Both the position numbers and the translations under genes were made by a program. A stretch of 64,000 nucleotides of DNA from IMG/VR virus record IMGVR_UViG_2740892441_000001; one strand, 5' to 3'. The DNA comes from a virus. Lineage: Duplodnaviria; Heunggongvirae; Uroviricota; Caudoviricetes. Positions 4,839 through 36,045 of the stretch are shown piece by piece (the first letter of the stretch is position 1; each line of letters opens with the position of its first letter). Under the pieces are notes generated by a model that was not told the DNA's origin, ran no database searches, and worked only from the letters and a program-made list of their open reading frames with translations.

Positions 4839-4936
4839 GTCTGGGCATGTCTTACTAAGCCTGCTTCCGTATATATTTAATAAGTTACTTATTATTTATA
4901 TATACGGAAGCAGGTCTTTAAATAACGTCCCAGACC
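4839..4936. repeat. Long near-perfect palindrome (CCTGCTTCCGTATATAT ... ATATATACGGAAGCAGG) with outer GGTCTGGG/CCCAGACC arms
   Basis: Read directly; lies between stop of 4939-5205 gene and the terS promoter region; a second copy of the same arm sequence is at ~35979-36037. Confidence 0.7.
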
Positions 4937-4938
4937 GA

Positions 4939-5205
4939 TTACATCACCAGTAACTTCGCTTTGGCTCGACCTAAAGTGGTTAACCCAAGAGTCCGGCGGT
5001 GATAGCGATTGTCACTGCGTTGGCGCGTATGCCCTTTCTCCACCAGCCCCTTTTTTATCAGAGCGCGAATTGAGAACTGGATACTTTGCTTTGTTGTCTT
5101 GTACGGCAAAACTTCAAGCAATTCGTCCAGATCAAGTAGATGACCTCGCTCATAACCGAGATTGAGCGTTTTGATGATGTCCTTTTGTTTGTCGGTTAAC
5201 GTCAT
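4939..5205 (-). CDS. Small putative DNA-binding protein (winged-helix-like)
   Basis: 88 aa, basic C-terminus; first gene downstream of the 5215-8112 operon. Confidence 0.45.
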   Translation of the reverse strand: MTLTDKQKDIIKTLNLGYERGHLLDLDELLEVLPYKTTKQSIQFSIRALIKKGLVEKGHTRQRSDNRYHRRTLGLTTLGRAKAKLLVM

Positions 5206-5214
5206 GGCAAATCC

Positions 5215-6105
5215 TTATGCCGGTAAAGCAATTTCTAACGGTTTATCCAAAGGTTGTTTGTCGAATGCCAGCAGTGGCAGCGTGTCAGGCAGTCGACGAC
5301 CAAAGTCAGGGTTTCGATACACACCATACAACGGAGACGTAAAGCTCAGGTTGTGAATGTCCTTGAGCAGCTTCACAATGCTGGCCTCGTCCACCAGACT
5401 GTCGGCAATGTCCTGAATCGTCGTGCCACGATTCCGCCCAGCTTTTGCCAGGGAACTGTTCTTGTGGTAGTCCGCCACCAGATCACGCAGTGCACGGCGA
5501 CGACGTGACTCGCTCATTGCGAACAACTCTTTGACGATCGCCTCGTTATCACCCGGGTCGGAGCGGAAATGGCGCTGGAACACACGCAGTGCACTTTCAT
5601 AGCTCTTCGGTCGCTCAGGGCGGATGAACTTGAACCCTGCTTTCATGGCGAAGGGATTGTATTTGCTCATCGAGGATTGGATCTCAATGATTGGCCGGTC
5701 ATGCATCCTGCTAACCAGGTTAATCATTCGATAAGAGACGCCTACGCCACGGTACTGAGTATCCACAACTGAGCGGCTGATCACCGCAAAGTTGTTATTC
5801 ACGTACCGGCCCCAGTACTGGTTAGCCACGGTGGTATTGGTGGTTGGTTTCAACTTAGGAAACATGCGATGGCGAGGTGCCAGCAGAAGTTTCGGGTAAG
5901 CCATAACCACGACGCCCACCAGACGGTCATCCAGTTCGCAGCGATAGTATGTTGGCGCGAAAGGTTTGCCGTCTGTTTTGTAGTGAAGCGACTTAAGAGC
6001 GTGCCAGTCCTCTACAGTTCCCTTTGTGACAGTCATTCGCTCCAGAAAGTCCAGATGACGCGGAAACTCTTCAGGGCGGTAGCGTTTAATGATGATGTCC
6101 GTCAT
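5215..6105 (-). CDS. Hypothetical protein (possible acyltransferase-like fold)
   Basis: 296 aa; stop/start overlap with upstream ATPase gene implies operon; weak GNAT-like segment RCELDDRLVGVVVMAYP. Confidence 0.5.
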   Translation of the reverse strand: MTDIIIKRYRPEEFPRHLDFLERMTVTKGTVEDWHALKSLHYKTDGKPFAPTYYRCELDDRLVGVVVMAYPKLLLAPRHRMFPKLKPTTNTTVANQYWGRYVNNNFAVISRSVVDTQYRGVGVSYRMINLVSRMHDRPIIEIQSSMSKYNPFAMKAGFKFIRPERPKSYESALRVFQRHFRSDPGDNEAIVKELFAMSESRRRRALRDLVADYHKNSSLAKAGRNRGTTIQDIADSLVDEASIVKLLKDIHNLSFTSPLYGVYRNPDFGRRLPDTLPLLAFDKQPLDKPLEIALPA

Positions 6106-6767
6106 GAATGGACCTCATCATAACTACCATTGTGATATTCCACCTTCACGCGTTCTTTGTAGTGCTTGGTGATCTGCATATCCGGGCGCAGCGCGTTCTT
6201 CAGGTCTTCGTGAGTCGTCGCCACCATTACCGTCGCACCAACCTTTCGAGCGGCACGCTGGAGGTTAGATGCCACAACCTGAGCGGTTACACGGTCTAGA
6301 ACAGCACCGAACTCGTCAGCAGCCCACACTTTAGCGCCTGACTCAATCAGTTTGGCAATCTTGAGACGATATTTCTGACCGTCTGACATTTCAGAAGGCT
6401 TGCGAACAAACAGATATGCATCGTTCAGACCTGCCATAGATAACAACCCAAGCGCATCACTGGTAGTTTTGCCCAGTTGGTCAATGACGTTAACCTCATT
6501 ATCGAAGGTAAAGTCATCAATAGAAGCTACAGAAAGCCCTTCATCCTTCATCTGGCGTTGCAACTCGCGCAACACAACGGATTTACCTGAACCGGATTGG
6601 CCGGTGATGTACACCACATCGCCCTGCTTCACTTCCAGCTCCAGATTGTCGTAAAGCGTCCACTCTTTTTCGTCCAGGCCAAGCCCGAACGACTCAGCGA
6701 TTTCCAACGTGCGCGTGGTTTTATTTACGCGTGTCTGAAACGATACGTTGATGATGTATTTGCTCAT
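6102..6767 (-). CDS. ABC-type ATPase domain protein (soluble)
   Basis: Walker A GQSGSGKS, ABC-signature-like MSDGQKYRL, Walker B VWAADEFGAVLD, H-loop-like ATTHED. Confidence 0.65.
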   Translation of the reverse strand: MSKYIINVSFQTRVNKTTRTLEIAESFGLGLDEKEWTLYDNLELEVKQGDVVYITGQSGSGKSVVLRELQRQMKDEGLSVASIDDFTFDNEVNVIDQLGKTTSDALGLLSMAGLNDAYLFVRKPSEMSDGQKYRLKIAKLIESGAKVWAADEFGAVLDRVTAQVVASNLQRAARKVGATVMVATTHEDLKNALRPDMQITKHYKERVKVEYHNGSYDEVHS

Positions 6768-7432
6768 GCAGCCATCTCCCCGGAAGAGATCTTCTCCGCA
6801 TATGCCACAAATGCGTCTACCCCGCTTTCTCCCGTCATTTCTTCCATGTGGGCAAGCAAATCACCAACAACAATGGCAGAGCCAGCAGGGAGCGTTTTAA
6901 AGCCCAATACGTCGATAACACGTACTTCTTCCGCTGCAACTTCACGACTGATCTCGGTGTGTTCATCCTTCTGTCGTTTAGTTTCTTCGCCCAGATCGAT
7001 AACTAGCGAGTCGGTGTCCATTTCTTCTGTCATGCTGCCAACGAGAACATTCAACTCCCGCTCTTCAAAGCCGAAAACCTCGATATCGTCCAGAACAAGC
7101 GACTCAAGTTCTTTCTGTAGCTTAATTGCATCGTAATCAATGCTGGCAAGTCGGTTATCTTCAAGGCGCTTCGCACGAACCTCGTCATCACTGAGATCAT
7201 CGCGAACAATAACCGGTACGCGCTCAAGTCCAGCAAAAATTGCAGCCTCACGGCGGCCGTGGCCAGTAATAATTACGTCGTTCTTATCGACCGTAATTGG
7301 CTGGTCAAATCCGCGCTTTTTAATGGCTGCGGCCAGATCTCGGATCTGCTGTTCATCATGCTTTTTGGCATTCATCTCATAGGGAATAAGATCTGCCGGG
7401 TCGCGATATACGATTTCAAACTTTTTGGTCAT
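6764..7432 (-). CDS. ParB-like nuclease domain protein
   Basis: ParB N-terminal-like motif ITGHGRREAA...VPVIV; start set at MTKKFEIVY (ATG overlapping upstream stop). Confidence 0.6.
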   Translation of the reverse strand: MTKKFEIVYRDPADLIPYEMNAKKHDEQQIRDLAAAIKKRGFDQPITVDKNDVIITGHGRREAAIFAGLERVPVIVRDDLSDDEVRAKRLEDNRLASIDYDAIKLQKELESLVLDDIEVFGFEERELNVLVGSMTEEMDTDSLVIDLGEETKRQKDEHTEISREVAAEEVRVIDVLGFKTLPAGSAIVVGDLLAHMEEMTGESGVDAFVAYAEKISSGEMAA

Positions 7433-8112
7433 TACATACACTCCTTGTAGTAGTCGACCAGCCACACCAGAGCCTCACCAGCGTTCTCCATTTCATTACC
7501 GGTGTTAATAGCCTGCTCTTTGATGATGTTTTTTATGGTTTCTGCAACACGATCTGACGCATCGAAAGTTACTTTGAAGCGCATGGTCTGATGTTCCGCA
7601 CCCACACGTTCGGTTTTCTCTCGTTTGTCGGTATCGACAGGCTCATCACTACCACGAGACAACGCCTCCAGTGCTTCAAGGTCGATTGCCGCCTCTTTTG
7701 CTAAAACCATCGAGATTTCGTCGTCATACGGGGCGATTTCAGACAGTTGATAGTCAAGTTCTGACTGAATTTCTTCAATGAAGCGTTGCAATGCGATTTG
7801 GTCGTCTTCACCGTATCGCTCGTTGTCCACTAGTGACATCTGTTTAGCTACGACATCGCTAATTTTGCCCACAGAAAGCACCGGAACCGTTGAAATTCCT
7901 TGCTCAATAGCAGCACGCCAGCGATGTTCGCCGCCGAGGATTTCAAAAAATCCATCTTCAAGTTCACGAGCCAAAATTGGCTTAAAAAAGCCCAATTTTT
8001 CGATAGAACCTTTCAGTTTTTCAAAATTCTGCGCACCAACCGAATTGGTGTTCCAGGTATTCGGGCGAAGGTTGGCAACATCAACCTGCAAAATCGTGAT
8101 TTTTACATCCAT
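7432..8112 (-). CDS. ParB-like nuclease domain protein
   Basis: ParB/Srx signature FEILGGEHRWRAAIEQGISTVPV; first gene of the operon, divergent from helicase gene. Confidence 0.65.
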   Translation of the reverse strand: MDVKITILQVDVANLRPNTWNTNSVGAQNFEKLKGSIEKLGFFKPILARELEDGFFEILGGEHRWRAAIEQGISTVPVLSVGKISDVVAKQMSLVDNERYGEDDQIALQRFIEEIQSELDYQLSEIAPYDDEISMVLAKEAAIDLEALEALSRGSDEPVDTDKREKTERVGAEHQTMRFKVTFDASDRVAETIKNIIKEQAINTGNEMENAGEALVWLVDYYKECM

Positions 8113-8194
8113 TTTATTGCTACAATCAACTAAGTAATTACTTACTTATTATAATAGCCAAATAACATACAAAAGGCACTAAGGAAAGAGGTTT

Positions 8195-9754
8195 ATGACT
8201 GTTCGGATTGTATCTAACGCAGTAAATGCGCTTATTTCTGGCGCAGATGACAAGGTAAAGCAACTGGTGCAACAGATGTTGAGCTACGAAGTCGAGACTG
8301 GCGACTGGAAAGGCACAAGCACGATGTTCAACTGGAGTAAAAACTCGTTCCCTGCTGGCTTTGCCAAGCCTGTAGCGGCGAACTTGAACAAGGCGGGCAT
8401 CAAATGTGTTCATATCCGCAAAGACAAAGCCCCGGCGCTTGGAAAGCCAAATCCGGCGGTTAACCCATTCCCATACAATCCTGATTATGCGTATCAGGAT
8501 CAGACTGTGGAAACGCTAGTTCGCGAGGGAATGATGATTGCGCAGATCGCTACTGGTGGCGGAAAATCTAATGTTGCCTGCAAAGCAGCTGCACGTATCG
8601 GTCGAATGACATTATTTTTAACAACCCGCTCTGTTCTGATGTTTCAGATGGCCGAAAACTTCCAGAGATCCATCGACTACCGCGCCGAAAATGGCGAACC
8701 GTGGTTAAAAGACCAAAAGGTTGGAGTAATTGGCTCGGGTGAGTTCCAGGTATCGCGACATATCAACGTTGCTACAGTTCAAACTCTTGCAAGTTTCCTC
8801 GAAGAACCACCACGCGATGCAACACCAGATAAGAAAAGCTACCACCTCAAACGTCGGGAGTTGGTGAAACGCTTCCTTTCAAGTGTCTCTCTTCTTATTC
8901 TGGAAGAGGCGCATGAGTCTTCAGGCTCTAATTTCTATGACATTGCCAGATTATGTGCGAACGCAGACTATCGCCTGGCGCTTACGGCAACGCCGTTCAT
9001 GAAGGATTCTACGGAAGCCAACATGCGTCTGATGGCTGTGGCCGGGCGAATTGAAATAAAAGTCACGGAAAAGTACCTGATTGATAAAGGCATTCTGGCA
9101 AAGCCATACTTCCTTTATCATAAAGTTGCCTACAAACCGGACGAGGTCAGAATCAAGGCAGAACTTGCTAACAAACACCTCAATTTTAGAGTAGGTATGA
9201 GCACTGCCTACCAAAAGGCTTATCAGTTGGGGATCGTGTATAATTTGGGACGTAACGAGGCCATTGTGCGCGAAGCATTGCTCTATAAGCAACACTCTCT
9301 CAACTGCATGACTCTGGTTCGTCTTAAACGCCACGGGCAAATCCTGATGGAGATGATGAAGGAGTCCGGTCTTAGAGTTGACTTCATCTATGGGGAATCG
9401 AACCAGGCGACAAGGCAAGCAAAGCTGAACAGTTTAGCGTCTGGTGAAATAGATGTTTTAATAGGCTCGACTATTCTGGATGTCGGTGTTGATGTGCCAA
9501 GCGTTGGTGCGGTCATTCTTGCTGGTGGCGGGAAAGCAGAAGTTGAAATGAGACAACGTGTCGGTCGTGGCTTACGAGCCAAGAAGAATCAGGCAAACGT
9601 GTGTTTTATCACTGATTTCATTGACATTAGCAACAAATACCTGTTGTCTCACTCTTATGAGCGAAAACACATCATCGACACTACACCTGGCTTTGCAGAA
9701 GGTGTATTGCCTATTGATGGCGCATTCGATTTTGGAGTTCTGAAACGAGATTAG
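8195..9754 (+). CDS. Superfamily-2 DEAD/DEAH-box helicase
   Basis: Motif I IATGGGKSN, motif II ILEEAHE, motif III LALTATP, motif VI RQRVGRGLRA; RBS AAGGAAAGAGG. Confidence 0.8.
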   Translation: MTVRIVSNAVNALISGADDKVKQLVQQMLSYEVETGDWKGTSTMFNWSKNSFPAGFAKPVAANLNKAGIKCVHIRKDKAPALGKPNPAVNPFPYNPDYAYQDQTVETLVREGMMIAQIATGGGKSNVACKAAARIGRMTLFLTTRSVLMFQMAENFQRSIDYRAENGEPWLKDQKVGVIGSGEFQVSRHINVATVQTLASFLEEPPRDATPDKKSYHLKRRELVKRFLSSVSLLILEEAHESSGSNFYDIARLCANADYRLALTATPFMKDSTEANMRLMAVAGRIEIKVTEKYLIDKGILAKPYFLYHKVAYKPDEVRIKAELANKHLNFRVGMSTAYQKAYQLGIVYNLGRNEAIVREALLYKQHSLNCMTLVRLKRHGQILMEMMKESGLRVDFIYGESNQATRQAKLNSLASGEIDVLIGSTILDVGVDVPSVGAVILAGGGKAEVEMRQRVGRGLRAKKNQANVCFITDFIDISNKYLLSHSYERKHIIDTTPGFAEGVLPIDGAFDFGVLKRD

Positions 9755-9756
9755 TT

Positions 9757-10035
9757 ATGAGCGAAAAGAAAACAACTTATTGTCAGGTAGCATTGACTGA
9801 TAAGGCCAATGACAAACTGGGAAAATTTCAAATGAAACTAAAAGAAAAAAACATCAAAATGTCCAAGGCTGAAGTTATCAATACCATTCTGGAGACGATG
9901 ACGATGGCTGAATTTGACAAGGTTTCATCTGCCGTTGGCGTCTCTGCTAAGGCTCGTGAAAAAATCATGCGCATCTATGAGAACTCTAATATGACAAAGG
10001 AAGACCTAGAACAAATTCTAAGCAAACTGCCATAA
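9757..10035 (+). CDS. Hypothetical small protein, coupled to helicase
   Basis: 92 aa ORF starting 2 nt after helicase stop. Confidence 0.5.
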   Translation: MSEKKTTYCQVALTDKANDKLGKFQMKLKEKNIKMSKAEVINTILETMTMAEFDKVSSAVGVSAKAREKIMRIYENSNMTKEDLEQILSKLP

Positions 10036-10177
10036 CATTTCACATTCCCTCCATCCGCCAATTCCAAGATGTGCTTACTTGTAAAAGGAGCACATCAATT
10101 GATGTGGCAGAGAATGAATTTAATCAAGACAAACATTGAATGATTAATAGACTACGATAGTGTCCAACAGGGCATTC

Positions 10178-10200
10178 TCATGTGACATTTGTCACATTTT
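10178..10200 (+). terminator. Rho-independent terminator-like hairpin (CATGTGACA..TGTCACATTTTT)
   Basis: Perfect inverted repeat followed by T-run, downstream of 9757-10035. Confidence 0.5.
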
Positions 10201-10287
10201 TAACCGCATAAGTCTCCGGCTGAAAAAAGTTCTTGATTGGCTGAATGATATTTGTAGGCTTATCAATGTTTAGAGCCGGAGGTGTGA

Positions 10288-10830
10288 ATGGGTGTACTTG
10301 ACATTGATAGTAATTACTTAAGTGCAAGGCGAATAAAGGAATGTGTTCATATCTATTGTAAATCAAAGCAGTCTTGTTTAGAAAAGCAGGCGTACCTAAC
10401 ATCTTCTCAAAAAGGAGAGCACAAACTCATCAAATATAAACTAAAGGCTTCGCGCAAAGATCGTTATGAGCACTATATATATGTAAAGGATATTGAAGGC
10501 ACCAAGACAAATTGCGGTATTATCTTTTATCCCTATGATATATCAAGACTGTTCTCCATTATGAAATCCTGTGTCGGCGTAGCTCCAGGTAAATTAGAGT
10601 TGCATTCAAACTTATACGATTACCCAAATGCTCAAAAACAGATAAACGATAGCACTTCGCCCTATGGATTTTCGTTTCTCTTTAAGAATCATCTCGCATT
10701 GAAAGATTTCATCGAAAAATACAATGAAGGAATAATATCAGGCGAATTAAATTTCAACAAAATCTGCGGAGATATAAAAAGGGACGACCTCTTAATAGAT
10801 ATTTACAATAGAATCCAAGTTAACGTGTAA
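10288..10830 (+). CDS. Hypothetical protein (low-GC accessory gene)
   Basis: 180 aa ORF, AT-rich codon usage distinct from neighbours. Confidence 0.5.
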   Translation: MGVLDIDSNYLSARRIKECVHIYCKSKQSCLEKQAYLTSSQKGEHKLIKYKLKASRKDRYEHYIYVKDIEGTKTNCGIIFYPYDISRLFSIMKSCVGVAPGKLELHSNLYDYPNAQKQINDSTSPYGFSFLFKNHLALKDFIEKYNEGIISGELNFNKICGDIKRDDLLIDIYNRIQVNV

Positions 10831-10857
10831 CCATCCATTAATCATAGCCAGACAAAT

Positions 10858-11277
10858 ATGAAAGTAACAAACCTAATTATTCTGACACTAGCCACATCAC
10901 TAATTGGGTGTTCATCTTCATCTATATCTGTTTCAAAGGCAAAGTATGCGCCTCAAAGCAGAATATTTAAATATCAAACACCACATGAGTCTAGTCTAAC
11001 AATAGTTAGAGACAAAGGGCTGGTTGGTTCTGGATGTAACGCTTCCATATTCATCAATGGAGAAACGGCAGCAAAATTGGAACCTGGTGAAAAAGCAACT
11101 TTCTATCTTAATGAAGGAGATTGGATCGTTGGGACATCAATTGAAAGTTCAGGTCTTTGCGCATTTAACCCCTCTAGGATGGAGCGAGAAATAAAACTAA
11201 AGCAAGGCGACGCGAAAACATATCGGGTTTTCACTACCTGGGATGGTACAATGGATATATTGCCAACCACTTTATAA
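10858..11277 (+). CDS. Putative lipoprotein
   Basis: N-terminal signal peptide MKVTNLIILTLATSLIGCSSS with lipobox LIGC. Confidence 0.6.
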   Translation: MKVTNLIILTLATSLIGCSSSSISVSKAKYAPQSRIFKYQTPHESSLTIVRDKGLVGSGCNASIFINGETAAKLEPGEKATFYLNEGDWIVGTSIESSGLCAFNPSRMEREIKLKQGDAKTYRVFTTWDGTMDILPTTL

Positions 11278-11806
11278 TGATATGACGACGAAAGACATCA
11301 CCTACGGTGTGCCAGCAGAAGTCTGGCCTCGAGATTACACTAACGTTGAAAAACTACTGATGTTCTGGCGCAGAGAACAAATTCCTGTAAGGGCCACTCT
11401 AGAAGATGGCCAGGCGTTTTGCATGTACGTTTATGGCCTCATGCCATCTCGTAACAAAGTTGACCTTTGCCCAGCCCCTTTTGACAAAGAAAATCGTATA
11501 AGGCTCCCACTTGAACGCATTAGTACAATTGAATCAGGTGTGGTTGACAGTATCGCTCACGATTTCAAAGGTCGATTAACAGTTCACCCTGATTATGTCG
11601 ATAATCGGCCATCACGCCGCGATTTTTTTGCTATTTGCAACCAAGCCTATAAAGCAAACAAATCTATAAGGGTGTACATGGCGGATGGCCGTGAAATTGA
11701 GGGGGTGTCAGCAGGCGCAGATGCTTGTCAGGTTACACTACGTGTCGAGAACGGTAGAAAAATAGTTATTTTGTTCGATTGGGTTGAACGAATTTTGCCT
11801 TTTTGA
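11243..11806 (+). CDS. Hypothetical protein
   Basis: 187 aa ORF; true start may be the internal Met at ~11281. Confidence 0.45.
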   Translation: MVQWIYCQPLYNDMTTKDITYGVPAEVWPRDYTNVEKLLMFWRREQIPVRATLEDGQAFCMYVYGLMPSRNKVDLCPAPFDKENRIRLPLERISTIESGVVDSIAHDFKGRLTVHPDYVDNRPSRRDFFAICNQAYKANKSIRVYMADGREIEGVSAGADACQVTLRVENGRKIVILFDWVERILPF

Positions 11807-11809
11807 GTT

Positions 11810-12118
11810 ATGAAATCGATATTGTTACCACCATTATTTTTACTTTGCTCAGTTGCAGCAAATGCAATGGACTATAAGCCTGTCATTCAGTCGCTGATGA
11901 ATGACGTGTGCTCAACGTCTCAGAATGTATCAGTTTGCATGTATCAATTTTCGGCAGCCGTAAAAGCAGGAAAAGCGATAGGTGAGAATGTGGAACTGTG
12001 TAAGAAAGTGGCAAATGAAGAACGAGCAATGTTGGATTGCGAATCTAGCGAGTCATCGGCACAGTTCGTTGATGCGCTATTTGACACCAATCGTAAGGCT
12101 GTAGAGTCTGTCCAATAA
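11810..12118 (+). CDS. Small secreted protein
   Basis: Signal peptide MKSILLPPLFLLCSVAANA; 102 aa. Confidence 0.55.
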   Translation: MKSILLPPLFLLCSVAANAMDYKPVIQSLMNDVCSTSQNVSVCMYQFSAAVKAGKAIGENVELCKKVANEERAMLDCESSESSAQFVDALFDTNRKAVESVQ

Positions 12119-12337
12119 ATCTATAAGGTTAATAACCGGCTAAGTCCGGTTATTATTTTTCACATCACTTCTTTATATCTATAAATCAAACAACCTAAAT
12201 ATATAAGGTCGAAAGCCGGAATCGATTATTTATTTAGGGAACACCTTCGACGATCTCGCTTTTATTTCTAGGACTTTCATCCCTGCAAAAAAATTTAAAA
12301 AAACACTTGCAATCTTTTTTCGCGTATCGATAATTGA

Positions 12338-13549: not shown

Positions 13550-13553
13550 AATC

Positions 13554-14648: not shown

Positions 14649-14725
14649 GATTATTTCCTTATCGTAAATAACAAATTGTTTTCTTGTTGGTGTTAATTAT
14701 CGTTGTACGAATAAGGCGTCAAAGT
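14649..14725 (-). promoter_or_regulatory. Conserved promoter/leader element (TTGACG ... GATAAT ... AACACCAACAAGAAAACAATTTGTT)
   Basis: -35/-10-like hexamers plus the conserved leader motif shared by more than 10 genes in the window. Confidence 0.5.
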
Positions 14726-14823
14726 GGAAAGTTGCGGTAGCCGGACGGGAACAGGTGGGTTTTTCGGTTGCCTGGAGGTAAGAGGTTGGTGTTTTTAGCC
14801 TGCGGGAAACAGGATGGTCATTT

Positions 14824-16382: not shown

Positions 16383-16508
16383 TTCACTCTCCGTAGTGTA
16401 TTGGTTATTTTTATATTCTATGATCGTAAGTATGTACTTACAAAACAAAAAAGCCCCGTAAGGATGGCGGGGCTGTCGTACTGTCGACTAATTACCACTT
16501 GCACATTA

Positions 16509-17949: not shown

Positions 17950-18500
17950 GTTTCAACCTCTCTATAGGCGTTAATGCTCACTCCTTCCAGAACGTTCTAT
18001 ACGGCAACTATTTCTGTTGGTGAATTGGGTGTGTTGTTTTCTCTGTCGGTGTATGTGGTTTCGTTCGTTTTGCGGTGGTTCTTCTATAGGGTGTTCTCGT
18101 CGTTTTGGTGATTGTTCTTCTCCGTCTATGGAGTAATGGCAGGTGGGCGATTCCTTTCGTTATTGTGTTTGAGTTGTTTGTCTGGAGTGCGTGAAGGGCT
18201 TTTGTAGTTATTCGTGTATTGGGTAATGGCGTTTCCCGTGATTGTTCTGTTTCGTGTCTTTTGGGATTGAAGAATCCTTGCGGTAACAGGCTTCGTTGGG
18301 GTTTCAGTGATTCTGGTGTTTCTTCGCTGTTTGGGTAATGGCGTGTCGTGGGTATCGCGCGTATGAATGTTTTCGGATTGCCTGTGAAAGTTAGGTTGGT
18401 TGTCCGGTAGCCTGGGAAGAAGAGGTGGGTCTTTTCGGTAGCCTGCCATAAAGAGGTTGGTTGTTTTTGGGAATGGCATATGCGTTATTTAGTTGTTTTG
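17950..18500. repeat. Strongly GT-skewed non-coding region built from degenerate tandem repeats
   Basis: Plus strand almost entirely G/T; repeated TTGGGTAATGGCGT units (~18135, ~18220, ~18335) and GGTAGCCTG units; overlapping ORFs have implausible T/P/Q/N-rich composition. Confidence 0.6.
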
Positions 18501-20119: not shown

Positions 20120-20271
20120 TCCGAAACAATTTGTTTTCTTATGTGGCTTATTATCTCAATCAACAAAAGGCAGAAAACAAATTGTTTTAGGGTTTGTTAA
20201 AGTCAGAAGGGATTGTGTCTATATGAAAATGCCCAGCGTATTGCCGGGCATTGTGAAGAATGGTTGCTTAA

Positions 20272-24028: not shown

Positions 24029-24120
24029 TACATGAAAGAAACCCACTTAGTGCAACCGATCGAGACTCTTCACCAAACAAAAATATTTTTCTCAAATAAG
24101 AAAAGGCAGAAAACAAATTG

Positions 24121-28238: not shown

Positions 28239-28357
28239 TCTTAACTCCGTTGTTTTCTAGTTGTGGTTATTTTCACAAATAAGAAAAGGCAGAAAACAAT
28301 TTATTCAAGGCCACAACTTATGGCCTTTATTTATTCATGCCGAAGGATTTGTAGCGT

Positions 28358-28738
28358 CTAATTGCCGGATAAAATGGGGTGAGGTGCTTGCCAGTAGGCC
28401 CCACCGTTCCATGTGAACCCCATGCGAATAAGAGTGTTTATTGCGGCTTTGGTAGACTCCGATTCGACACTGGCTTTTCGAAACTCTTGAACCTCTTTCG
28501 CCAACTTGTATGTAATTGTGCAGGGGACGATTGCAGCCCAGCCTTTCTCATGACTGTTAATGACCATCTGGATGTGACCATCCAGAATAGGTTGATCAGG
28601 CATGTTATTGAAAACGTCTGCCTGTTTTTGAATGTGAAGAAAAAGCCTTGCCAGCTCCATTTGCTCACTACGAGACAAGGGATTATCAAGAGGGCTTTTT
28701 GCAAAAGCGGCTATACGCTGTGCGTCAATGCCAAACAT
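28358..28738 (-). CDS. Hypothetical protein
   Basis: 126 aa ORF. Confidence 0.5.
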   Translation of the reverse strand: MFGIDAQRIAAFAKSPLDNPLSRSEQMELARLFLHIQKQADVFNNMPDQPILDGHIQMVINSHEKGWAAIVPCTITYKLAKEVQEFRKASVESESTKAAINTLIRMGFTWNGGAYWQAPHPILSGN

Positions 28739-29442
28739 CAGCGCACCTCACCATCTTTATGGCTGGAGTTAACTTCCGCCATTAAATGTCTGACGTAATC
28801 GACAAGAGAGCCACCTGGTGGAATCTGGCATTCCTCAACTAACTGGAAGTAGATATCAGCAGCATTACGTGTATTGCTACCCGCGCATATTCTTTCTTCC
28901 CGAAGTGCATGAAGCTCGTTGATCAAACGGTCACACTCTCCGTTACGCTGATCCACAACAGCCTCAAGTTCTGCGACGCGTTCACCTGGCGTCTTACCTT
29001 CTTTGCGTTGGATGGTAACGACGAAATCGCCCATTTCAGGGACGTTGTAATCCAGCTCAAGGTAGTTTTTGGCACCGCTGCGGACGAACTCACCCGCGAA
29101 CATGGTGGCGAACATCGCAGAGGCCATTGTGCCGTTGAAAAGTGACTCCAGATCTAACGGAGTCCCGGCAGCCAGAGCCTCTTTTGCTGTATCCATTGCA
29201 TCCATGAACCGATCAAACTCATTGGCGCGCTTTTCCAGGTCTTTCCATTGCTCGCTCCAACGTTTGGCAACGAAGTCTATGAATGTTTTCGCGGATTCAT
29301 CAAAATCCCCCTCAAACTTAACGATGCCTTTATCAATAATGATCTGGCCTACCGCATCCTCTGCATAACCTTTCAATGTAAACTTGAAAGGAAAATCGGA
29401 ATGGCCTGTGACGTTAAAATGCTCTAACTGGAGGTTGCTCAT
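28738..29442 (-). CDS. Hypothetical protein
   Basis: 234 aa ORF, start overlaps downstream gene. Confidence 0.5.
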   Translation of the reverse strand: MSNLQLEHFNVTGHSDFPFKFTLKGYAEDAVGQIIIDKGIVKFEGDFDESAKTFIDFVAKRWSEQWKDLEKRANEFDRFMDAMDTAKEALAAGTPLDLESLFNGTMASAMFATMFAGEFVRSGAKNYLELDYNVPEMGDFVVTIQRKEGKTPGERVAELEAVVDQRNGECDRLINELHALREERICAGSNTRNAADIYFQLVEECQIPPGGSLVDYVRHLMAEVNSSHKDGEVR

Positions 29443-29503
29443 GTGTTTTTCTCTTATCGTTTAGTTACTACATTCTTACACAAATTAAGTAAGTATTTAC
29501 CTA

Positions 29504-31189
29504 TTATTTAACGCGTTTGAAAACGTATACGCTGACTGTGATCCCGGTATCTTCAAACTCGTTGGTAAACGACTTCCCTTTGGCATAAACGTAATTATCC
29601 ATCGTCATCCAGCTCAGGATTGGCGCAGTGCCCGGCAATACTGCTACAAGACGCCCGCCGACTTTCAGATGCCCCAGCGCAGCCAGCGTGTGCTCTCTAT
29701 GACGACCAAGCGAGTACGGCGGGTTCATAACGATTTTGTCGAACTGATAACCTGCGTTGTCCTCAGACCACTTTATGAAGTCACAGCAAATCGTGTTCGT
29801 ATACCCTTTTCCACGCAGGATATCAGCGAAGAGAGGTGCGATTTCTATGCAGGTAACATCTTCCAGATCGGCGTTAATATAGGCCAGAAGATCCCCACGT
29901 CCGGCTTGAGGCTCCAGCAGCTTCTCACCAGGCTTCAATTCAGTGGCTCTGGCAACGTACTCAGCAATCAAGCGTGGGGTAGGGTAGAACTGGTGTGATT
30001 TTGTATCCGGTATTAAACCGGTAGCCACAATCGTATTTAGCGTATGGCCGATGTCATACGGGAACTGCCAGTGCTTTTTCTCCTGCACGCCGCCAATGAA
30101 GCTCAGTGTGCGCTCAAGCTCTTCCACCTGCGACTTCTGGAGAGCTGAATCAGAGAAGTACCATACGCCTTTGTCTTTGCTCAATCGCCCGTCACGAAGC
30201 GCAGTGCGAACCGGCACGGAGATCGTCTTCTGGATTAAACCGAACTGCTTTGGTGCCCGTGTTTTTGGCGCAGTTCGGCATGGCGAGGGGATTGCAGCAG
30301 GCATACTGTAAGCCAGCACCTCATTCAACTTCCAGGCCACGTCAGGATGTATTTCAAAGTGAACGTTGCCGTTCTTGAACATCTTCACGCGCATCAGATT
30401 TCCATCGACGTTCATCCAGTCACCGGTCTGGCAGTCGTTTGCCCTATACGCAGCTGATAGCACCTCAGCAGTGCGGTTGATGGTAATAAATTCTTTGTGC
30501 GCGAAGAAATGAAGCAAGACACGCAGATCGTCGATGTAGTCCTCTTTGCGATAGTTCACGCTAACGCTGTCCCGCCAGAAATCAGAAATGCAGTCAGCGA
30601 TTATCAGACGCTCGCTGAAACCGTTTGTCTTATTTGTCTTGTGCGCAGGACTCAGCGCCTTAAACAAGCCATACACGCGCTCAGAGAGATATTTGTGCCT
30701 GTCATTCAGCAAATTAAGCATCGTGGGTATGACCGTTTCTGCTTTGAACTCCGGTACACCAACGAACTCTTTAACCTTCATCTGGTAGCCGGTTCTGTCG
30801 GTTTTGATGACTTCCTGTTTGCCCTCTATAAACTGCTCGCGCCACTCATCTCGACGGGAAGCTGGCATGATCAGCAAAACGTTAGTCATGTCCGTGACCT
30901 TCCTCCAGTACTCGGCCCAAATATTCTGTTTCACCCATTCCAGATCGACTTTATCCAGCCAAGCTCGATTCAAACGTGAGCGTTCTTCATCTGGTCGGTG
31001 GTTCAGTTGCAGCAGGCGATTAATCATGTTGTGGCGTTCGTCGCCATAAACGAAGTCGTGAACCTGGTACATGAAAGCGATCTCTTTCTCGCACTCGGCC
31101 ACAATTTCGTGGATGACGTTCATTTCCTGCCGATAGTCGATAGCAGTGTTTGAGTTGGCATCGTCGATGATGGAAAGGGCTGTATTCAT
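29504..31189 (-). CDS. DNA N6-adenine methyltransferase (gamma-class C-terminal domain) with large N-terminal domain of unknown function
   Basis: C-terminal motifs in order X-I-IV: YPTP, LEPQAGRGDL, IVMNPPYS; N-terminal ~390 aa unassigned. Confidence 0.8.
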   Translation of the reverse strand: MNTALSIIDDANSNTAIDYRQEMNVIHEIVAECEKEIAFMYQVHDFVYGDERHNMINRLLQLNHRPDEERSRLNRAWLDKVDLEWVKQNIWAEYWRKVTDMTNVLLIMPASRRDEWREQFIEGKQEVIKTDRTGYQMKVKEFVGVPEFKAETVIPTMLNLLNDRHKYLSERVYGLFKALSPAHKTNKTNGFSERLIIADCISDFWRDSVSVNYRKEDYIDDLRVLLHFFAHKEFITINRTAEVLSAAYRANDCQTGDWMNVDGNLMRVKMFKNGNVHFEIHPDVAWKLNEVLAYSMPAAIPSPCRTAPKTRAPKQFGLIQKTISVPVRTALRDGRLSKDKGVWYFSDSALQKSQVEELERTLSFIGGVQEKKHWQFPYDIGHTLNTIVATGLIPDTKSHQFYPTPRLIAEYVARATELKPGEKLLEPQAGRGDLLAYINADLEDVTCIEIAPLFADILRGKGYTNTICCDFIKWSEDNAGYQFDKIVMNPPYSLGRHREHTLAALGHLKVGGRLVAVLPGTAPILSWMTMDNYVYAKGKSFTNEFEDTGITVSVYVFKRVK

Positions 31190-31292
31190 AATTGCACCAT
31201 TAAGAAGTGATTTGTTTAATGGTGCAATTATTTCAAAAATGAAAAGGTACTAAATAGAAATAAACAGGCAATCCTTCAAATAAAGGCATTGG

Positions 31293-32191
31293 CTAATCAT
31301 ACTTGGAGGTATTTATCACCAGAATTTTGTTTGTATAAATCTTCTTAATATCCCATGTGACATTACCGGAATACCATTGACCGTTATATACTTGGTTTCC
31401 AGTTGCACCTGTCATTGTTACATAGACAGGTCTGTCGTAATCGGTTCGTCTATAGTTATATACCCCAACCATAGCAGGCATTACCGCACATGGATACCCC
31501 ATATCTATTGTAAATTGAGGGTCAGAAATAGTGATAAGTTTCGCATCAAGGGGCATCATCTCACCGTGATACACCATTGCGCCTGCGCTGTTATACATGG
31601 CAATGCCATAGCCAGAATGTGGTAACACCATATCAGAAAAAGCATAAACTGTTATTGTTCCGGGGCTACCATTTACCTGATGCAATCTGAGAGCATTGTA
31701 TCCGTTACTATGCTCATGAATAAACATCATGTTCGCCTTATTACTGCTTTTTATGAAAAAAAAACATGATTTGTTTGATGGGATTGATGTTTGAAAAACA
31801 GAACCTTTAGATGTAGACATTGTCCCTTTATTAATCAGATTTTGCGGAGTAAATTCTGGACTCATCCACAAACTTCCATCTGATTGAGTAATTGACATCC
31901 CGAACATAATTATCCCCAGTATGTGTATATGTAAGAACCAAGCCCTGTATATAAATTTGACCAACTAACCGTATTTCCATTAATTGTCACTGTTGGAATA
32001 GGTAAATCGATATAGTTGTCGTTGTTAAGAGGCATCAGTGACCATACAGCATGTAGCGATTTACCCGGTGGTGGATTGGAGTACGTCTTAGAGCCTGATG
32101 ACGCCGTAAATCGATCAAGAAAAAAAATAGGTGTAAGGAAGCCTGTAACGTTAATTCCTTTATTGTTGTAAATCCCTGTACCGTATGCCAT
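31293..32191 (-). CDS. Hypothetical protein(s); two overlapping ORFs (31910-32191 and 31293-31964) possibly one frameshifted gene
   Basis: Low-GC region; ORFs overlap by ~55 nt in different frames. Confidence 0.35.
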
Positions 32192-32245
32192 TTTTCATCC
32201 TTGTTTTTATCAACATAATATGGCCGATCATGCGGCCATATCAGA

Positions 32246-32815
32246 TCAATTAGAGCTTTGAAAGGCTTTGTGTGGCTGTGTTGCGAGGTTATGTCGATGA
32301 CTTAACTCACGCATCATGTCTTCAAGGCGACTCTTTGTGTCGTCGAGTTGATCAGCCATTGCTCCCAAAAGCTGACGAACGGCCATCGGATCGTCGCTGT
32401 TTAGTGATGGCATTTTATAACCCGCCTGAGAAGACATCAGATTGAACGCAGACATCAACATCGTTAGAGAGGATTTAAGCCCGGCAATTTCACGATCTTT
32501 GCTGGCAATAATCGTCTCACTTTTGTTACCGTCATGAGTTCCTTGAGTCTCGCTCACCATATCCAAAGTCGCTTGCAACTTATCAGCTCTCTCTTTTTCA
32601 GCAAGGTAATGAACACCGAAATGATGTGCTAAAGCTACAACCTGAGTTGGTTCTTCAAAGGTGGAATTAAAATTAAGTACTGTAAACAGTCTCTCAAATA
32701 TGGAAACGTCTTCTGTTCCCCGAACAATGCCTAACATTTTGACAAGTTCATTAGCATCCATTTCTTCGAATAGGGCGTTTTGTTCATCAGCTATTGCTTT
32801 GCATTTCTCGCACAT
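32246..32815 (-). CDS. Hypothetical protein
   Basis: 189 aa; conserved promoter element at 32828-32860 upstream. Confidence 0.5.
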   Translation of the reverse strand: MCEKCKAIADEQNALFEEMDANELVKMLGIVRGTEDVSIFERLFTVLNFNSTFEEPTQVVALAHHFGVHYLAEKERADKLQATLDMVSETQGTHDGNKSETIIASKDREIAGLKSSLTMLMSAFNLMSSQAGYKMPSLNSDDPMAVRQLLGAMADQLDDTKSRLEDMMRELSHRHNLATQPHKAFQSSN

Positions 32816-32954
32816 GTGTTTTCCTTAATGCTTAAACAAGTTGTTTTCTTATTGGCTTTATTGTGATGTGACATAAAAGGGGAGCAAGCTAAACGTAAAG
32901 GTGCAAACTCTCTATTTCGGTCAACGAAACACAAGGGCCAAATGGCCCTTGTCA

Positions 32955-33113
32955 TTAACACGTTGCTTTACGGACTAGCGGATAAGCGAAGTAGATCGCC
33001 AGACCAATGAGGACGCCATCAGAAATGACAGACATCATCTTTCCCGTAAAATCCACCAACACCGCCATCACCAGAAGAGCAATGACGGTCACAAGCCGGA
33101 ATCTCTCAAGCAT
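32955..33113 (-). CDS. Small hydrophobic protein (52 aa), translationally coupled to the TerB-like gene
   Basis: Hand-translated MLERFRLVTVIALLVMAVLVDFTGKMMSVISDGVLIGLAIYFAYPLVRKATC; ATG overlaps upstream stop; below the 60 aa ORF cutoff. Confidence 0.3.
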   Translation of the reverse strand: MLERFRLVTVIALLVMAVLVDFTGKMMSVISDGVLIGLAIYFAYPLVRKATC

Positions 33114-33538
33114 TAGAGATAAGCATCCAGTGACAACTGAAGCGCCTGGGCGATCTTTTTCAGCGCCAGCTCTTCTGGTTCATCAATGCCGTCTTGGTCG
33201 GCAATATCAAGGCACAGACACAGTACATCTACTGCATCATCAGTCCCGGCCACATCCGCCAGCTCACGTAAAGCCTGGGCATTAGCACGGCGCGGTGAGG
33301 CTTCGTATTGAGCGCGGATATTGGCGCTCATCTGGGCAATCTCACCAGCAAAAGGAGAAAATGCAGGCAGAGCTGCAATTGTTTTCTCAAGAATGGAAAT
33401 TTCTTTTGCGTCACATGTACCGTTGGCATAGGAGATCATGTACCCGCCCCACACGGTGGCTTCAACCGCATCACGGTTCTCCATTTTTTTGACTTCGATA
33501 ACTGCTTTACGAGTTTTCTTTTTGAAGAAACCTAACAT
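33113..33538 (-). CDS. TerB-like domain protein
   Basis: 141 aa; C-terminal DIADQDGIDEPEELALKKIAQAL resembles TerB-type repeats. Confidence 0.45.
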   Translation of the reverse strand: MLGFFKKKTRKAVIEVKKMENRDAVEATVWGGYMISYANGTCDAKEISILEKTIAALPAFSPFAGEIAQMSANIRAQYEASPRRANAQALRELADVAGTDDAVDVLCLCLDIADQDGIDEPEELALKKIAQALQLSLDAYL

Positions 33539-33631
33539 GTGTTTTCCTTTTGTTATTTGTCAAAACAAGTTGTTTTCTAGTTAAATAAATTGCTTACGCA
33601 AAGACGGTCAATGCATAGGCACTAACAGCCG

Positions 33632-33823
33632 TCAGAAATAACCAAGTACCGAACCAACTGGAAAAACAAAAATCCCAACTACACGAGCCAAGGTCATGCC
33701 AGCCTGAAACTGGAGATCACCAGAGCAAACAAGTTTTATAATGTTCGATACCCAACCGGCGGCCATGAGGCCAGAATTGCCAGCCAAATTTTTCCAAAGT
33801 GATTTGAAAACCAGTTCATACAA
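33632..33823 (-). CDS. Small putative membrane protein
   Basis: 63 aa, hydrophobic. Confidence 0.35.
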   Translation of the reverse strand: MYELVFKSLWKNLAGNSGLMAAGWVSNIIKLVCSGDLQFQAGMTLARVVGIFVFPVGSVLGYF

Positions 33824-33828
33824 CCGCC

Positions 33829-34323
33829 TTAGTCACAGCATGATCCTGAGTAACTGGATGAACTTGAGGTATCGCATCCACCGCCATCCCATCCAGAGTG
33901 ACAGGACGCTCCACTGGAGTGGTGGTAATTGTCGTCGACGAAGGTGTGGTGATGGATGAATCCGGCATCAAAAGGCTCTGACCGGCTGGAACGGCTACCG
34001 TCGCCAGTGAAACTATAATGAGAACGTAGGCCATTGGTTTCAGCCTCTTTCTTTGAAAATTTTCCATCCGAACGGTCCTTGTTATTTTTCTCCTTCACTA
34101 AAGGCCGTGCATTTTTCGCTTCACATGAAGAACTGGAGGTTACAATCGCCCCCACGTTCGCAACAACTGACGCTTGCTTATCTAAACGTGCCTTCAGCAC
34201 CAGAACGGTAGTTTCCAATTCATCAAGACGTGACAGAAGGCGACCGCTAAATAATTCGGCCAAAATTTGACGTAAAGAACGAGGGCGTTTAGTTGCAGGA
34301 GTTAAAAAAAATTGACGTGCCAT
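33829..34323 (-). CDS. Hypothetical protein (C-terminal part doubtful; alternative embedded ORF 33816-34067 has a signal-peptide-like N-terminus)
   Basis: N-terminal 80 aa coiled-coil-like; C-terminal Ser/Gly/Cys-rich tail looks non-native. Confidence 0.3.
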   Translation of the reverse strand: MARQFFLTPATKRPRSLRQILAELFSGRLLSRLDELETTVLVLKARLDKQASVVANVGAIVTSSSSCEAKNARPLVKEKNNKDRSDGKFSKKEAETNGLRSHYSFTGDGSRSSRSEPFDAGFIHHHTFVDDNYHHSSGASCHSGWDGGGCDTSSSSSYSGSCCD

Positions 34324-34468
34324 ATGGACTCCATCCAGTGTCAGAAAGAGTTGCGGCTGGCGATTGCCAGCCGCCTTTCTCGTTCCATCCTGGAACTGTG
34401 TCTTACCGACACATTGTCATCCTGACGCCGATAAGATACATGATTTAAAATGATAGGTAAACACTTAC

Positions 34469-35062
34469 TTACTGCTTGTTATAAACAAAACCAATATCTT
34501 TCTTGTGAGGCATATCTGCTGCGGAAAAAGCTGCGATCTTCGCGAGTCGATCACATATTTCATTTTCACGATGCCCGGCGTGACCTTTAACCCACTTCCA
34601 GCGAACATTATGTCGACTTGCGGCCTCATCCAGACGCTTCCACAGATCAACATTCTTTACCGGTTTTTTGTCAGAAGTCATCCATCCATTGCGTTTCCAG
34701 AATTTCATCCACTGTGTCATGCCGTTTTTCAGATACTGGCTATCAGAGTGCATAATAACGTTGCATGGATATTTCAAACGCTCCAGCCCGATAAGTGCCC
34801 CCATCATCTCCATGCGGTTATTGGTGGTGCTATGAAAACCATCTGAGAACTCGCGTTCCTCACCACGATACTGGAGAACTATACCGTAACCGCCCGGGCC
34901 ACCCGGATTTTTAAGGCAAGAGCCATCACTGAAGATTTTCACGGTTTTAAGCTGGGGATTGAACTCTACGACAGGCGTTGTGGGATTGGTGCGGGGAGAA
35001 TTTTTGTTTTTGTCTTTTTTGCGAGTTTTTGCTTGCGACCGGGCTGGTGTCTTCGACGTCAT
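34469..35062 (-). CDS. rnhA: Ribonuclease HI with basic N-terminal extension
   Basis: Core [18 protein letters not shown]...[11 protein letters not shown]...DSQY...[15 protein letters not shown] closely parallels E. coli RNase HI; start set at MTSKTPARS (RBS GGAG). Confidence 0.9.
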
Positions 35063-35119
35063 ATAAACTCCTGAATCAAGCGCCGCGCCGTTTTTTCCTC
35101 GCGCGTGCGCACACACGTG

Positions 35120-35640
35120 CGTGTAATAATTATTAAAATAAACAAATTACTTCCCAGTACAGGTTTTTATAAACCTGAACTGAACGAACGAAGTGAGTGA
35201 AGTTCACCTCGAACGAAGTGAGAGGTTGTCTTTTCAGGTAATACTCTCCCAGGGAGGTGAGTATAAAATTCCTCACCAACCTGGTCGTTTCATAACCTGA
35301 AAAGCTATGGTCTAAGTCTACTGCCAGCTTAGACTTGGGAAGTTATGGATGACAGCACCCCAGAACCGAGATCTTCCCACACTTTATGAAGGGGAGTACT
35401 GGATTCAACCTCTCGAAACACCCCAGACTCGACAATCATAAAGTGACCCTTGTCTCCGCTCACTTTGGTTCCCCCTTCCCCGACACCTAAACGGCACCGG
35501 TTCTACGCTGGTAGTGAGCTTTTTTAAACCTGACGCCAGTGACGCTTACCCCCACCCATCAGGTCGAGTCTCCAGTCTACGACTGGAAACTATCAGATCT
35601 TAGCACTTACAATTCATCTTATGAATAGTTTGTACTTATC
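35120..35640. other. ~520 bp ORF-free region with multiple hairpins and a 12 bp direct repeat (GAACGAAGTGAG x2)
   Basis: No ORF of 60 aa or more on either strand; hairpins CAGGTTTttataAAACCTG, GGTGAG..CTCACC, GTCTAAG..CTTAGAC; AGTGAGC + TTTTTT at ~35511-35526. Confidence 0.5.
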
Positions 35641-35642
35641 TA

Positions 35643-35897
35643 TCATTTCGATTGATTATTTTCTCGACCATGTAGTTGAACATTCAAGGCAAACACCTCG
35701 TTAATCAACTCACCTAAAAGCTGTTCAACAAGTTCGCGATGCTCCCCAAGATGCAAGCACTTAATTGCCCATTCGTACAAGTTGAAAGCCTGCTCGCGAT
35801 CTTTCATCATTTCACGGGCCTGGGCCAGAAAATCGCTCTCTACGAGCGCAACGACATTAGTCGGGTATGACATGTTAGTTTCCTTAAAGTGATTCAT
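35643..35897 (-). CDS. Hypothetical small protein
   Basis: 84 aa; start may be the internal MSYPTNVV. Confidence 0.4.
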   Translation of the reverse strand: MNHFKETNMSYPTNVVALVESDFLAQAREMMKDREQAFNLYEWAIKCLHLGEHRELVEQLLGELINEVFALNVQLHGRENNQSK

Positions 35898-35953
35898 AAA
35901 ATCGATTTTAAAGCGTCTGGGAAGGGGTTCTAGTGGATTCTGTAGTGATGTTC

Positions 35954-36045
35954 AGGTCTGGAGTCTCTGATACAAAACAGCCTGCTTCCGTATATTAATA
36001 ATTAATATGTAGTTATTTATATATACAGAAGCAGGCTAATTACAG
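35954..36045. repeat. Second copy of the long palindrome (AGCCTGCTTCCGTATAT...ATATATACAGAAGCAGGCT)
   Basis: Shares the CCTGCTTCCGTATAT arm with the 4839-4936 palindrome. Confidence 0.7.

Follow-up and report, generated by a model that had tools for sequence, protein, structure and literature searches.

Three dispersed copies of a conserved palindromic element in SSU5-like phage-plasmids, possibly multiple lytic replication origins

The 64,000-nucleotide stretch of viral DNA analysed here (IMG/VR record IMGVR_UViG_2740892441_000001, hereafter the window) carries two long AT-centred palindromes, one upstream of the small terminase gene terS and the other after a dam methyltransferase gene. By sequence identity the window is part of an E. 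coli SSU5-like phage-plasmid: it is 97-99% identical to the E. coli SSU5-like plasmid-prophages CMS-2020a, Cyrano/pLF82 and PhiR41_1, and with 2-kb queries around both sites the identity was ~77-79% for Klebsiella relatives and 79-87% for Salmonella phage SSU5. Almost all genes lie on one strand, which is the minus strand of the window and the plus strand of Cyrano. At the first palindrome the open reading frame (ORF) of an 88-aa winged-helix-like protein is followed by the element and then by terS, TerL and an SPP1-type portal; at the second, dam is followed by the element and an 84-aa ORF. The original prediction had placed both palindromes between convergent or consecutive minus-strand transcription units. 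The units are consecutive in both cases and convergent in neither.

Both palindromes were found as described, with their limits refined from 4839-4936 and 35954-36045 to 4838-4936 and 35955-36055 (Table 1). They are built on one plan: an outer box, a spacer of ~15 nt, a GC-clamped arm of 14-16 bp, an AT/TA-rich dyad centre, the complementary arm, a second spacer and the box again in inverted orientation. The outer boxes (GGTCTGG...CCAGAC) stand 13-20 nt from the arms, and TA repeats lie next to the GC clamp. A 15-nt arm sequence occurred 4 times where 0.12 occurrences were expected, and none of 100 shuffles reached this number. The elements (98-116 nt) were folded both ways: as RNA, in stretches of 111-116 nt, the energies were -38 to -52 kcal/mol (z -6 to -10); as DNA they were -19 to -26 kcal/mol (z -6 to -10.5). 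In neither case did any of 200 shuffles fold as well. The earlier view of the palindromes as non-random, structure-forming sites that are likely recognised by something is upheld. Copy 1 possibly has a second tier of boxes further out (Table 1), and in relatives another CCAGA is found 30-35 nt from the arm.

Table 1. Coordinates of the two palindromic units in the window and of the genes that adjoin them
Feature	Position	Strand	Remarks
TerS, small terminase / DNA-binding protein	4110..4742	-	annotation; phrog_867; downstream of copy 1
Possible second-tier box TTCTGGTG	4820..4827	.	mirror of CACCAG 4945-4950; overlaps the promoter-associated motif CCAGAAAACAAnTTG
Copy 1, whole unit, box to box	4838..4936	.	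dyad centre ~4886/7
Copy 1 left outer box GGTCTGGG	4838..4845	.	14 nt from arm
Copy 1 left arm CCTGCTTCCGTATATA	4860..4875	.	GC clamp and TA repeat
Copy 1 AT-rich interior, 23 nt	4876..4898	.	inner dyad AATAAGT-T-ACTTATT
Copy 1 right arm TATATACGGAAGCAGG	4899..4914	.	
Copy 1 right outer box CCCAGACC	4929..4936	.	14 nt from arm
88-aa winged-helix-like protein	4939..5205	-	phrog_900; weak Sta1/Lrs14 helix-turn-helix matches; gene ends 2 nt before copy 1
Possible second-tier box CACCAG	4945..4950	.	within the last codons of the 88-aa ORF
84-aa ORF	35643..35897	-	phrog_5343; downstream of copy 2
Copy 2, whole unit	35955..36055	.	same plan as copy 1
Copy 2 outer box GGTCTGG	35955..35961	.	
Copy 2 arm CCTGCTTCCGTATATT	35981..35996	.	
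Copy 2 arm TATATACAGAAGCAGG	36020..36035	.	arm position 9 forms a U.G pair on the minus strand, which is transcribed
Copy 2 outer box CCAGAAC	36049..36055	.	
Dam methyltransferase	36059..36652	-	PF05869, E 2.5e-38; copy 2 begins 3 nt past the stop codon

A scan of the complete Cyrano genome revealed a third unit at Cyrano 31159-31211, outside the window. It follows the third gene of the parA operon and precedes CYRAN_31, the head of the helicase-primase-ligase block. In CP053388, which is 99% identical, the copy-1 query matched 6 places, which would fit three sites hit on both strands. The three units split the ~108-kb genome into blocks of ~31, 47 and 30 kb and mark the borders of three co-directional gene blocks, standing before terS and the late genes (copy 1), after dam (copy 2) and before the helicase-primase-ligase genes (copy 3). 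From E. coli to Acinetobacter copy 3 lies directly before the helicase-primase operon. Its upstream flank is, judged from the collected loci, a hotspot of gene-content change beside the palindrome: in a set of 75 loci the 300 nt before it could be sorted into 18 unrelated sequence classes, compared with 6 for the downstream side, and by eye the divergence reaches the left arm. CYRAN_31 itself had no match in Pfam, PHROG functions or NCBIfam, and its AlphaFold model (predicted local distance difference test score 78) is all-alpha.

We gathered loci from IMG/VR using TerS, Dam and CYRAN_31 as anchors. The unit was present at 74/76 sampled loci upstream of terS, at 68/80 after dam and at 78/80 in the position of copy 3, and the loci without it were truncated contigs or more distant lineages; both window copies are therefore retained in relatives, a check that the original prediction had proposed. 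Within the SSU5 group the arms CCTGCTTCCGTATA and the boxes GGTCTGG/CCAGAC are common to all three copies. Arm positions 1-4, 7 and 10-14 are almost invariant, and positions 5, 6, 8 and 9 vary, often in one arm only. A table of 33 distinct arm pairs across lineages was computed by script together with a shuffle control (a MAFFT alignment of the arms had introduced register gaps). In this table 93% of the cells were paired, and compensatory change was evident at 10 of the 14 arm positions, which showed more than one type of Watson-Crick pair (13 extra types); this was matched by 0 of 2000 arm shuffles. The interior ranged from 23 to ~100 nt among copies, changes in TA-repeat length included. 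Since complementarity is kept while the distance between the arms changes fourfold, the arms act by pairing together, as a hairpin or cruciform, and a dimer site of fixed spacing is ruled out.

The outer boxes behaved differently from a simple extension of this helix. Their distance from the arm is near constant (13-20 nt) though the spacers have diverged, and 32 of 36 unique copy-1 sequences have TCTGG at a distance of 14-16 nt from the arm. At copy 3 the right (downstream) box was retained in 37/44 and the left (upstream) box in 25/44, and one Acinetobacter unit carries a box in direct orientation. Constant spacing, unequal retention and the direct orientation together suggest that the boxes are protein sites and not a mere outer helix. 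The copies also undergo concerted evolution. In some genomes two sites share the same core, and variants or flanks that are asymmetric can be found in either orientation, indicating that the copies exchange sequence by gene conversion. Arms and boxes are specific to a lineage and common to all its copies despite differing centres, which argues for recognition by a co-evolving factor acting in trans, with gene conversion contributing.

One distant lineage is Moellerella pW1-b, where long palindromes occupy all three orthologous sites and have arms of their own (CCTAGCTCCCATA, slightly diverged at copy 1). Copies 1 and 2, at which the boxes were read, also have boxes of their own, CCGCAGTG/CACTGCGG. 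The interiors reach ~100 nt and differ between the copies while arms and boxes agree, suggesting selection on a specific sequence and not simple tract homogenisation. Copy 3 of this plasmid lies between divergent genes. A 14-nt scan for the Morganellaceae-type arm was swamped by chance matches, and a gapped pattern returned the known site only. Further arm variants were read in two IMG/VR relatives (L281 and L282). In K. pneumoniae pCRKP18622-1, copy 1 is a degenerate hairpin with a long T-run, and copies 2 and 3 are reduced to one arm and the AT block; these remnants are near-identical (~40/45 nt, read by eye) and have canonical terminators just downstream. Acinetobacter pAYP-A2, whose TerL is 59% identical, has at least 4 units with arms TTCCG..CGGAA and boxes ACTTGGG/CCCAAGT, at ~9.95, 21.8, 52.5 and 85.8 kb. 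Some are at positions analogous to copies 1 and 3: the 85.8-kb unit is found between repM and the CYRAN_31/helicase operon. The 21.8-kb unit lies in a region without an annotated gene. This plasmid also encodes a sigma-70-family factor beside Pol III alpha. Taken across these lineages, the sequence comparisons establish a real, deeply conserved three-copy family of cis-elements, of which we found no description in the literature searched.

Our preferred reading, which is tentative and to which we give a probability of about 0.35, is that the elements are protein-recognised, fold-back-forming sites acting at the DNA level, most likely multiple lytic origins, two of which would double as terminators. 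We infer that a phage-encoded protein would recognise boxes and arms and the AT centre would melt, whereupon each separated strand could fold back on itself and stabilise the melted state. Initiation would then take place at the elements, which would serve as unwinding and loading sites for the lytic replisome of the phage (DnaB-like helicase, primase, Pol III alpha and gp32/UvsX/UvsY/UvsW-like proteins), separately from the RepA-iteron origin of the plasmid state. The fixed occurrence at three orthologous sites, the compensated arm pairing, the concerted lineage-specific sequences and the protein-site-like boxes count in favour of this. So do copies placed where a terminator makes little sense (Moellerella copy 3, the Acinetobacter 21.8-kb unit) and the near-identical one-arm and AT-block remnants of pCRKP18622-1. 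The context is given by the place of copy 3 before the helicase-primase operon, by the T4-like replication set and by the location of the RepA origin elsewhere.

That origin lies at 53675-55675, where a Rep_3-family RepA gene (54223-55278, plus strand) has CCACTATAGAGAG-type iterons on both sides and the region includes a perfect DnaA box at 53940. Neither RepA-type iterons nor a DnaA box were found in the palindromes, which do not resemble iteron origins. The T4-like DNA metabolism set was listed from Cyrano, mostly in the part corresponding to window 8-60 kb and with protein names as annotated by the depositors. It comprises an SbcC/SbcD-like nuclease, RuvC, RecA/UvsX-like, UvsY, a gp32-like single-stranded DNA-binding protein and UvsW, together with Pol III alpha, a DnaB-like helicase, primase, ligase, RNase H, NrdAB and ThyX.

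A close known parallel is provided by the AT-centred palindromic origins oriS and oriL of herpes simplex virus (HSV), of which there are three per genome. As in these, an AT-rich dyad centre is flanked by inverted boxes, the unit is present in several copies, the melted strands could fold back, and cloning or assembly is notoriously unstable. Unlike HSV, the host is a bacterium, no UL9-like protein was identified, two of three copies have terminator-like T-tracts, and initiation is here a proposal. Several observations weigh against lytic origins. No initiator or dedicated origin-binding protein was recognised, and no DnaA boxes were found near the palindromes. CYRAN_31 was considered as an initiator and rejected, being without a match to any solved fold in the PDB. 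Three origins in addition to a plasmid origin would be unusual for a temperate phage. GC skew over the full Cyrano genome rose monotonically because almost all genes are on one strand, and was uninformative on origins. Copies 2 and 3 maintain T-tracts across divergent tails, which speaks positively for a role at the RNA level, one not required if the elements are origins. Finally, the sense RNA hairpin of copy 3 was more stable than the antisense one in 39/44 variants. As for the binder, the 88-aa winged-helix-like protein, TerS and the ParB-like proteins are candidates. The 88-aa protein is named as a candidate purely by inference; searches of solved structures with the TerS and 88-aa sequences gave nothing useful, and comparison of the 88-aa and 84-aa neighbour proteins showed no paralogy.

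An RNA-level function is the alternative that we take most seriously, and we regard it as possible. The elements would be 25-bp, AU-rich, GC-clamped hairpins in long co-directional mRNAs, serving as terminators or insulators and/or as RNase III processing or stability sites; they would shield the lytic blocks from transcription reading through out of maintenance genes, and similarity among copies would reflect common descent and gene conversion, of which identical copies within some genomes give proof. The elements begin 2-25 nt past the stop codons of co-directional genes, a CCTGC/GCAGG clamp closes the 25-bp stem as in the stable G+C-based stem-loop of an intrinsic terminator, and a double-stranded RNA of at least ~20 bp inside a polycistronic transcript, as used by RNase III-type enzymes, could form. 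In the 8 nt past the hairpin the sense strand has on average 2.9 T at copy 1, 4.5 at copy 2 and 5.25 at copy 3, and all 44 variants of copy 3 have at least 4 T in 8 despite diverged tails. Where the pCRKP18622-1 hairpin is degenerate, the canonical terminators just downstream fit the same idea. Sense-strand G.U pairs exceed C.A at copy 3 (54 vs 3) and copy 1 (19 vs 5), with 15 vs 20 at copy 2, counts that are phylogenetically non-independent. On the other hand, no T-tract is present at copy 1, at Moellerella copy 2 or at any Acinetobacter unit; in the window the tail of copy 1 (CTTAGTAA) is without one, that of copy 2 (CTGTTTTG) is borderline, and a terminator scan called neither. At copy 2 the antisense strand folded better (20 vs 7) and C.A is about as common as G.U, and some copies (Moellerella copy 3, Acinetobacter) are not downstream of a co-directional gene. 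The missing T-tracts, the divergent-gene setting and the mixed wobble bias suggest that termination is not the common denominator, and if the elements were substrates of a host enzyme, nothing would account for all copies sharing lineage-specific arms and boxes while the centres diverge. Rfam contained no matching family, only sub-threshold matches to generic (miRNA) hairpins. We conclude that copies 2 and 3 probably double as transcription terminators. Of the strong bidirectional terminators that had been predicted, the strong terminator finds partial backing at copies 2 and 3, which have the T-tract that copy 1 lacks; bidirectionality is unsupported. In print, the nearest analogue of such dispersed look-alike palindromes is provided by T7-type RNase III sites, which are included among those of the T7-like vibriophage VIB04 (PMC11707656). 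Such sites share with ours dispersed, mutually similar intergenic hairpins and almost one-directional transcription, but the present element has three copies, near-perfect stems of ~25 bp instead of ~10+10 bp with an internal loop, conserved outer boxes, some copies outside co-directional transcripts and no consistent sense-strand signal. The T4-type promoter-early stem-loop (PeSL) cassettes are likewise repeated intergenic homology patches edging variable gene sets, reminiscent of the hypervariable DNA upstream of copy 3; we detected no sigma-70 promoter in the unit, however, and its positions are fixed, not many and variable. Lambda nutL/nutR are multi-copy hairpins that co-vary with a phage-encoded protein between related phages, but they are 15 nt long and act as RNA only, and no N-like protein is known here.

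Among readings at the DNA level, dispersed centromeres or ParB-loading sites are doubtful. A ParB-family protein encoded upstream of copy 1, or the small ParA partner upstream of copy 3, would bind boxes and arms and so segregate the plasmid prophage and/or silence adjacent lytic operons, like SopB on N15 or KorB at operators. A conserved ParB - ParB/Srx - ABC-ATPase cluster closely precedes copy 1, as the parA operon does copy 3, and these are the classical places for a centromere; the genome encodes ParB_N proteins (7432-8112 and 6764-7465), a search upstream of parA found no repeat array able to serve as a centromere, and the sites are multi-copy, dispersed and lineage-specific in sequence. 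In phage-plasmid N15, SopB acts at four dispersed palindromic centromeres, and with the N15 SopB sites and RK2 KorB operators our elements share the few palindromic sites among phage operons and the ParB-family genes (and, with N15, a plasmid prophage). Known parS, sopC and OB sites are, however, contiguous palindromes of ~13-16 bp. Here 23 to ~100 nt of AT-rich DNA separate the arms, complementarity and not spacing is conserved, and the centre differs between copies. No partition gene is near copy 2, and the Acinetobacter analogue of copy 3 follows repM, not parA. A packaging (pac) site, where TerS would bind the boxes of copy 1 (or of all three) and TerL would make the first headful cut, is unlikely. 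In its favour, all lineages have copy 1 at ~100 nt upstream of terS, TerL has P74-26 TerL and T4 gp17 as its nearest solved relatives, which fits a headful enzyme, and in P1 and SPP1 pac sites, too, short repeated boxes flank a central region. Both the linear SSU5 record and Cyrano open at window 4877/4878, a point within copy 1 that is ~9 nt away from its dyad centre, and the junction is seamless. Such an opening cannot be chance, but Cyrano, the LF82 plasmid, was compared against SSU5 and has probably been re-oriented on it. Contigs of isolate assemblies, which represent the plasmid form, also end in or within ~100 nt of copy 2 (L231, L266) and copy 3 (L413, L426), indicating that three 55-bp palindromic repeats break assemblies by themselves. 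We therefore rejected the record ends as physical termini (pac or cos), Cyrano being laid out like SSU5 and isolate contigs ending at copies 2 and 3 as well; the p4727 record starts at an ATG, and we found no paper reporting termini. A pac site is moreover unique in its genome, whereas here identical units stand at two further loci that are far from, and unrelated to, packaging. The suggestion that the terS copy is a pac-associated element accordingly keeps its adjacency to terS and is otherwise weakened. A protelomerase target (telRL) was likewise discarded, as there are three copies, the relatives are circular records and the Cyrano annotation contains no protelomerase. Programmed self-cleavage on induction is improbable as well. 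Hairpins extruded at the three palindromes and recognised through the conserved arms and boxes would be cut by the phage Mre11/Rad50-like (SbcCD/gp46-47) nuclease or a resolvase, turning the circular low-copy prophage into molecules with ends, launching recombination-dependent replication and providing concatemers for headful packaging; if true, this would be a plasmid-to-phage replication switch without a classical initiator. We think still less of break or recombination hotspots in general, at which extruded hairpins would be cut by host SbcCD, the phage SbcCD/gp46-47-like nuclease or a RuvC-like resolvase to give the circular prophage ends for T4-style recombination-dependent replication, with gene conversion and module exchange as by-products. 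The phage does encode SbcC/SbcD-like, RuvC, RecA/UvsX, UvsY, gp32-like and UvsW proteins. Gene conversion, orientation flipping between copies and TA-repeat slippage were seen, and the hypervariable upstream flank of copy 3 has its junction at the arm (18 vs 6 sequence classes). Structure alone would suffice for cutting, though, leaving the conserved boxes and arm sequences unexplained; the half-elements of pCRKP18622-1 are unable to form a hairpin, no breakpoint was seen at copy 2 in the one mosaic genome that was examined, and 55-100 bp is below the length that E. coli SbcCD attacks efficiently in vivo. Least credible of all is a miniature mobile element, similar to miniature inverted-repeat transposable elements (MITE) or repetitive extragenic palindromes (REP) and inserted three times. 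Terminal inverted boxes, a length of ~100 bp and several copies per genome recall such elements, but the same three orthologous sites are filled in almost all complete relatives, neither additional nor vacant sites were seen, and the sites persist with changed sequence in the Moellerella and Klebsiella lineages. Among the matches listed, inverted arm pairs in IMG/VR occurred only in loci with the SSU5-type element and flanks, and the variable presence and spread expected of a mobile repeat were not observed among them.

Several further features of the window were noted around the units. Directly upstream of copy 1 and terS, five genes at 5215-8112 (minus strand) encode ParB, a ParB/Srx-like protein, an ABC-type ATPase, a 296-aa ATPase-like protein and the 88-aa winged-helix protein; the ParB, ParB/Srx and ABC-ATPase core is syntenic in the Moellerella, Klebsiella and Acinetobacter relatives. 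The terS leader contains, directly before the ribosome-binding site, a terminator-like hairpin (4761-4782, minus strand), TAGAGCGCATGGACGCGCTCTG followed by TGTGTTTT. It is kept in relatives, and Acinetobacter terS is preceded by an analogous hairpin and T-run, which suggests that the late operon is under antitermination control. The motif CCAGAAAACAAnTTG (core palindrome AAACAAnTTGTTT) occurred 15 times in the window where 0.7 were expected, for example at 4811-4825, 14672-14686, 20170-20184, 24106-24120, 33566-33580 and 57306-57320. The sites read in sequence include those upstream of terS and, in Cyrano, of parA, and the motif is probably the promoter or operator motif of a phage regulator. 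A T4-late-promoter reading of the interior motif TATAAATA of the palindromes was dropped, as that motif is not conserved across lineages.

A second motif, the perfect palindrome TAAGTAAGTACTTACTTA of 18-20 bp, had 9 matches against 0.03 expected. It was located at 1333-1350, 8131-8148, 16427-16444, 29486-29503, 34454-34471, 42284-42301, 58446-58463 and 63232-63249, and motifs of this type are also found at 2839-2857 and 36664-36687. At the four starts checked (ParB, dam, portal and CYRAN_31) it lies ~10-35 nt upstream of the start codon, making it a possible operator or translational operator. A half-site of this motif is similar to the centre of copy 1. In addition, a repeat finder reported ~30-nt tandem repeat pairs (TTTTCGGTAGCCTGG...AGAGGTTGGT) at 14731-14796 and 18401-18467, and duplicated GC-rich terminator-like hairpins, e.g. 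14817-14855/15288-15326, 13050-13083/13542-13575 and 24124-24144/28307-28327.

Phage-plasmids of the SSU5 type are widespread in E. coli, Klebsiella, Salmonella (pHCM2), Yersinia pestis (pMT1), Enterobacter and Acinetobacter, and carry resistance genes. In the literature searched we did not find their lytic origin, their packaging site or their lysogeny-to-lysis circuitry characterised, and the three-copy, co-evolving element described here would be the best candidate cis-site for one of these. The palindromes would also explain why assemblies and records of these plasmids break at the same three places, and as conserved patches of homology they may permit the exchange of modules. Palindromes that form hairpins in phage DNA are known triggers of defence of the Lamassu/DdmABC type, and the dispersed palindromes of the vibriophage VIB04 trigger Lamassu defence (PMC11707656). 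That such palindromes trigger defence and are yet retained implies that they bring a strong benefit to these phage-plasmids.

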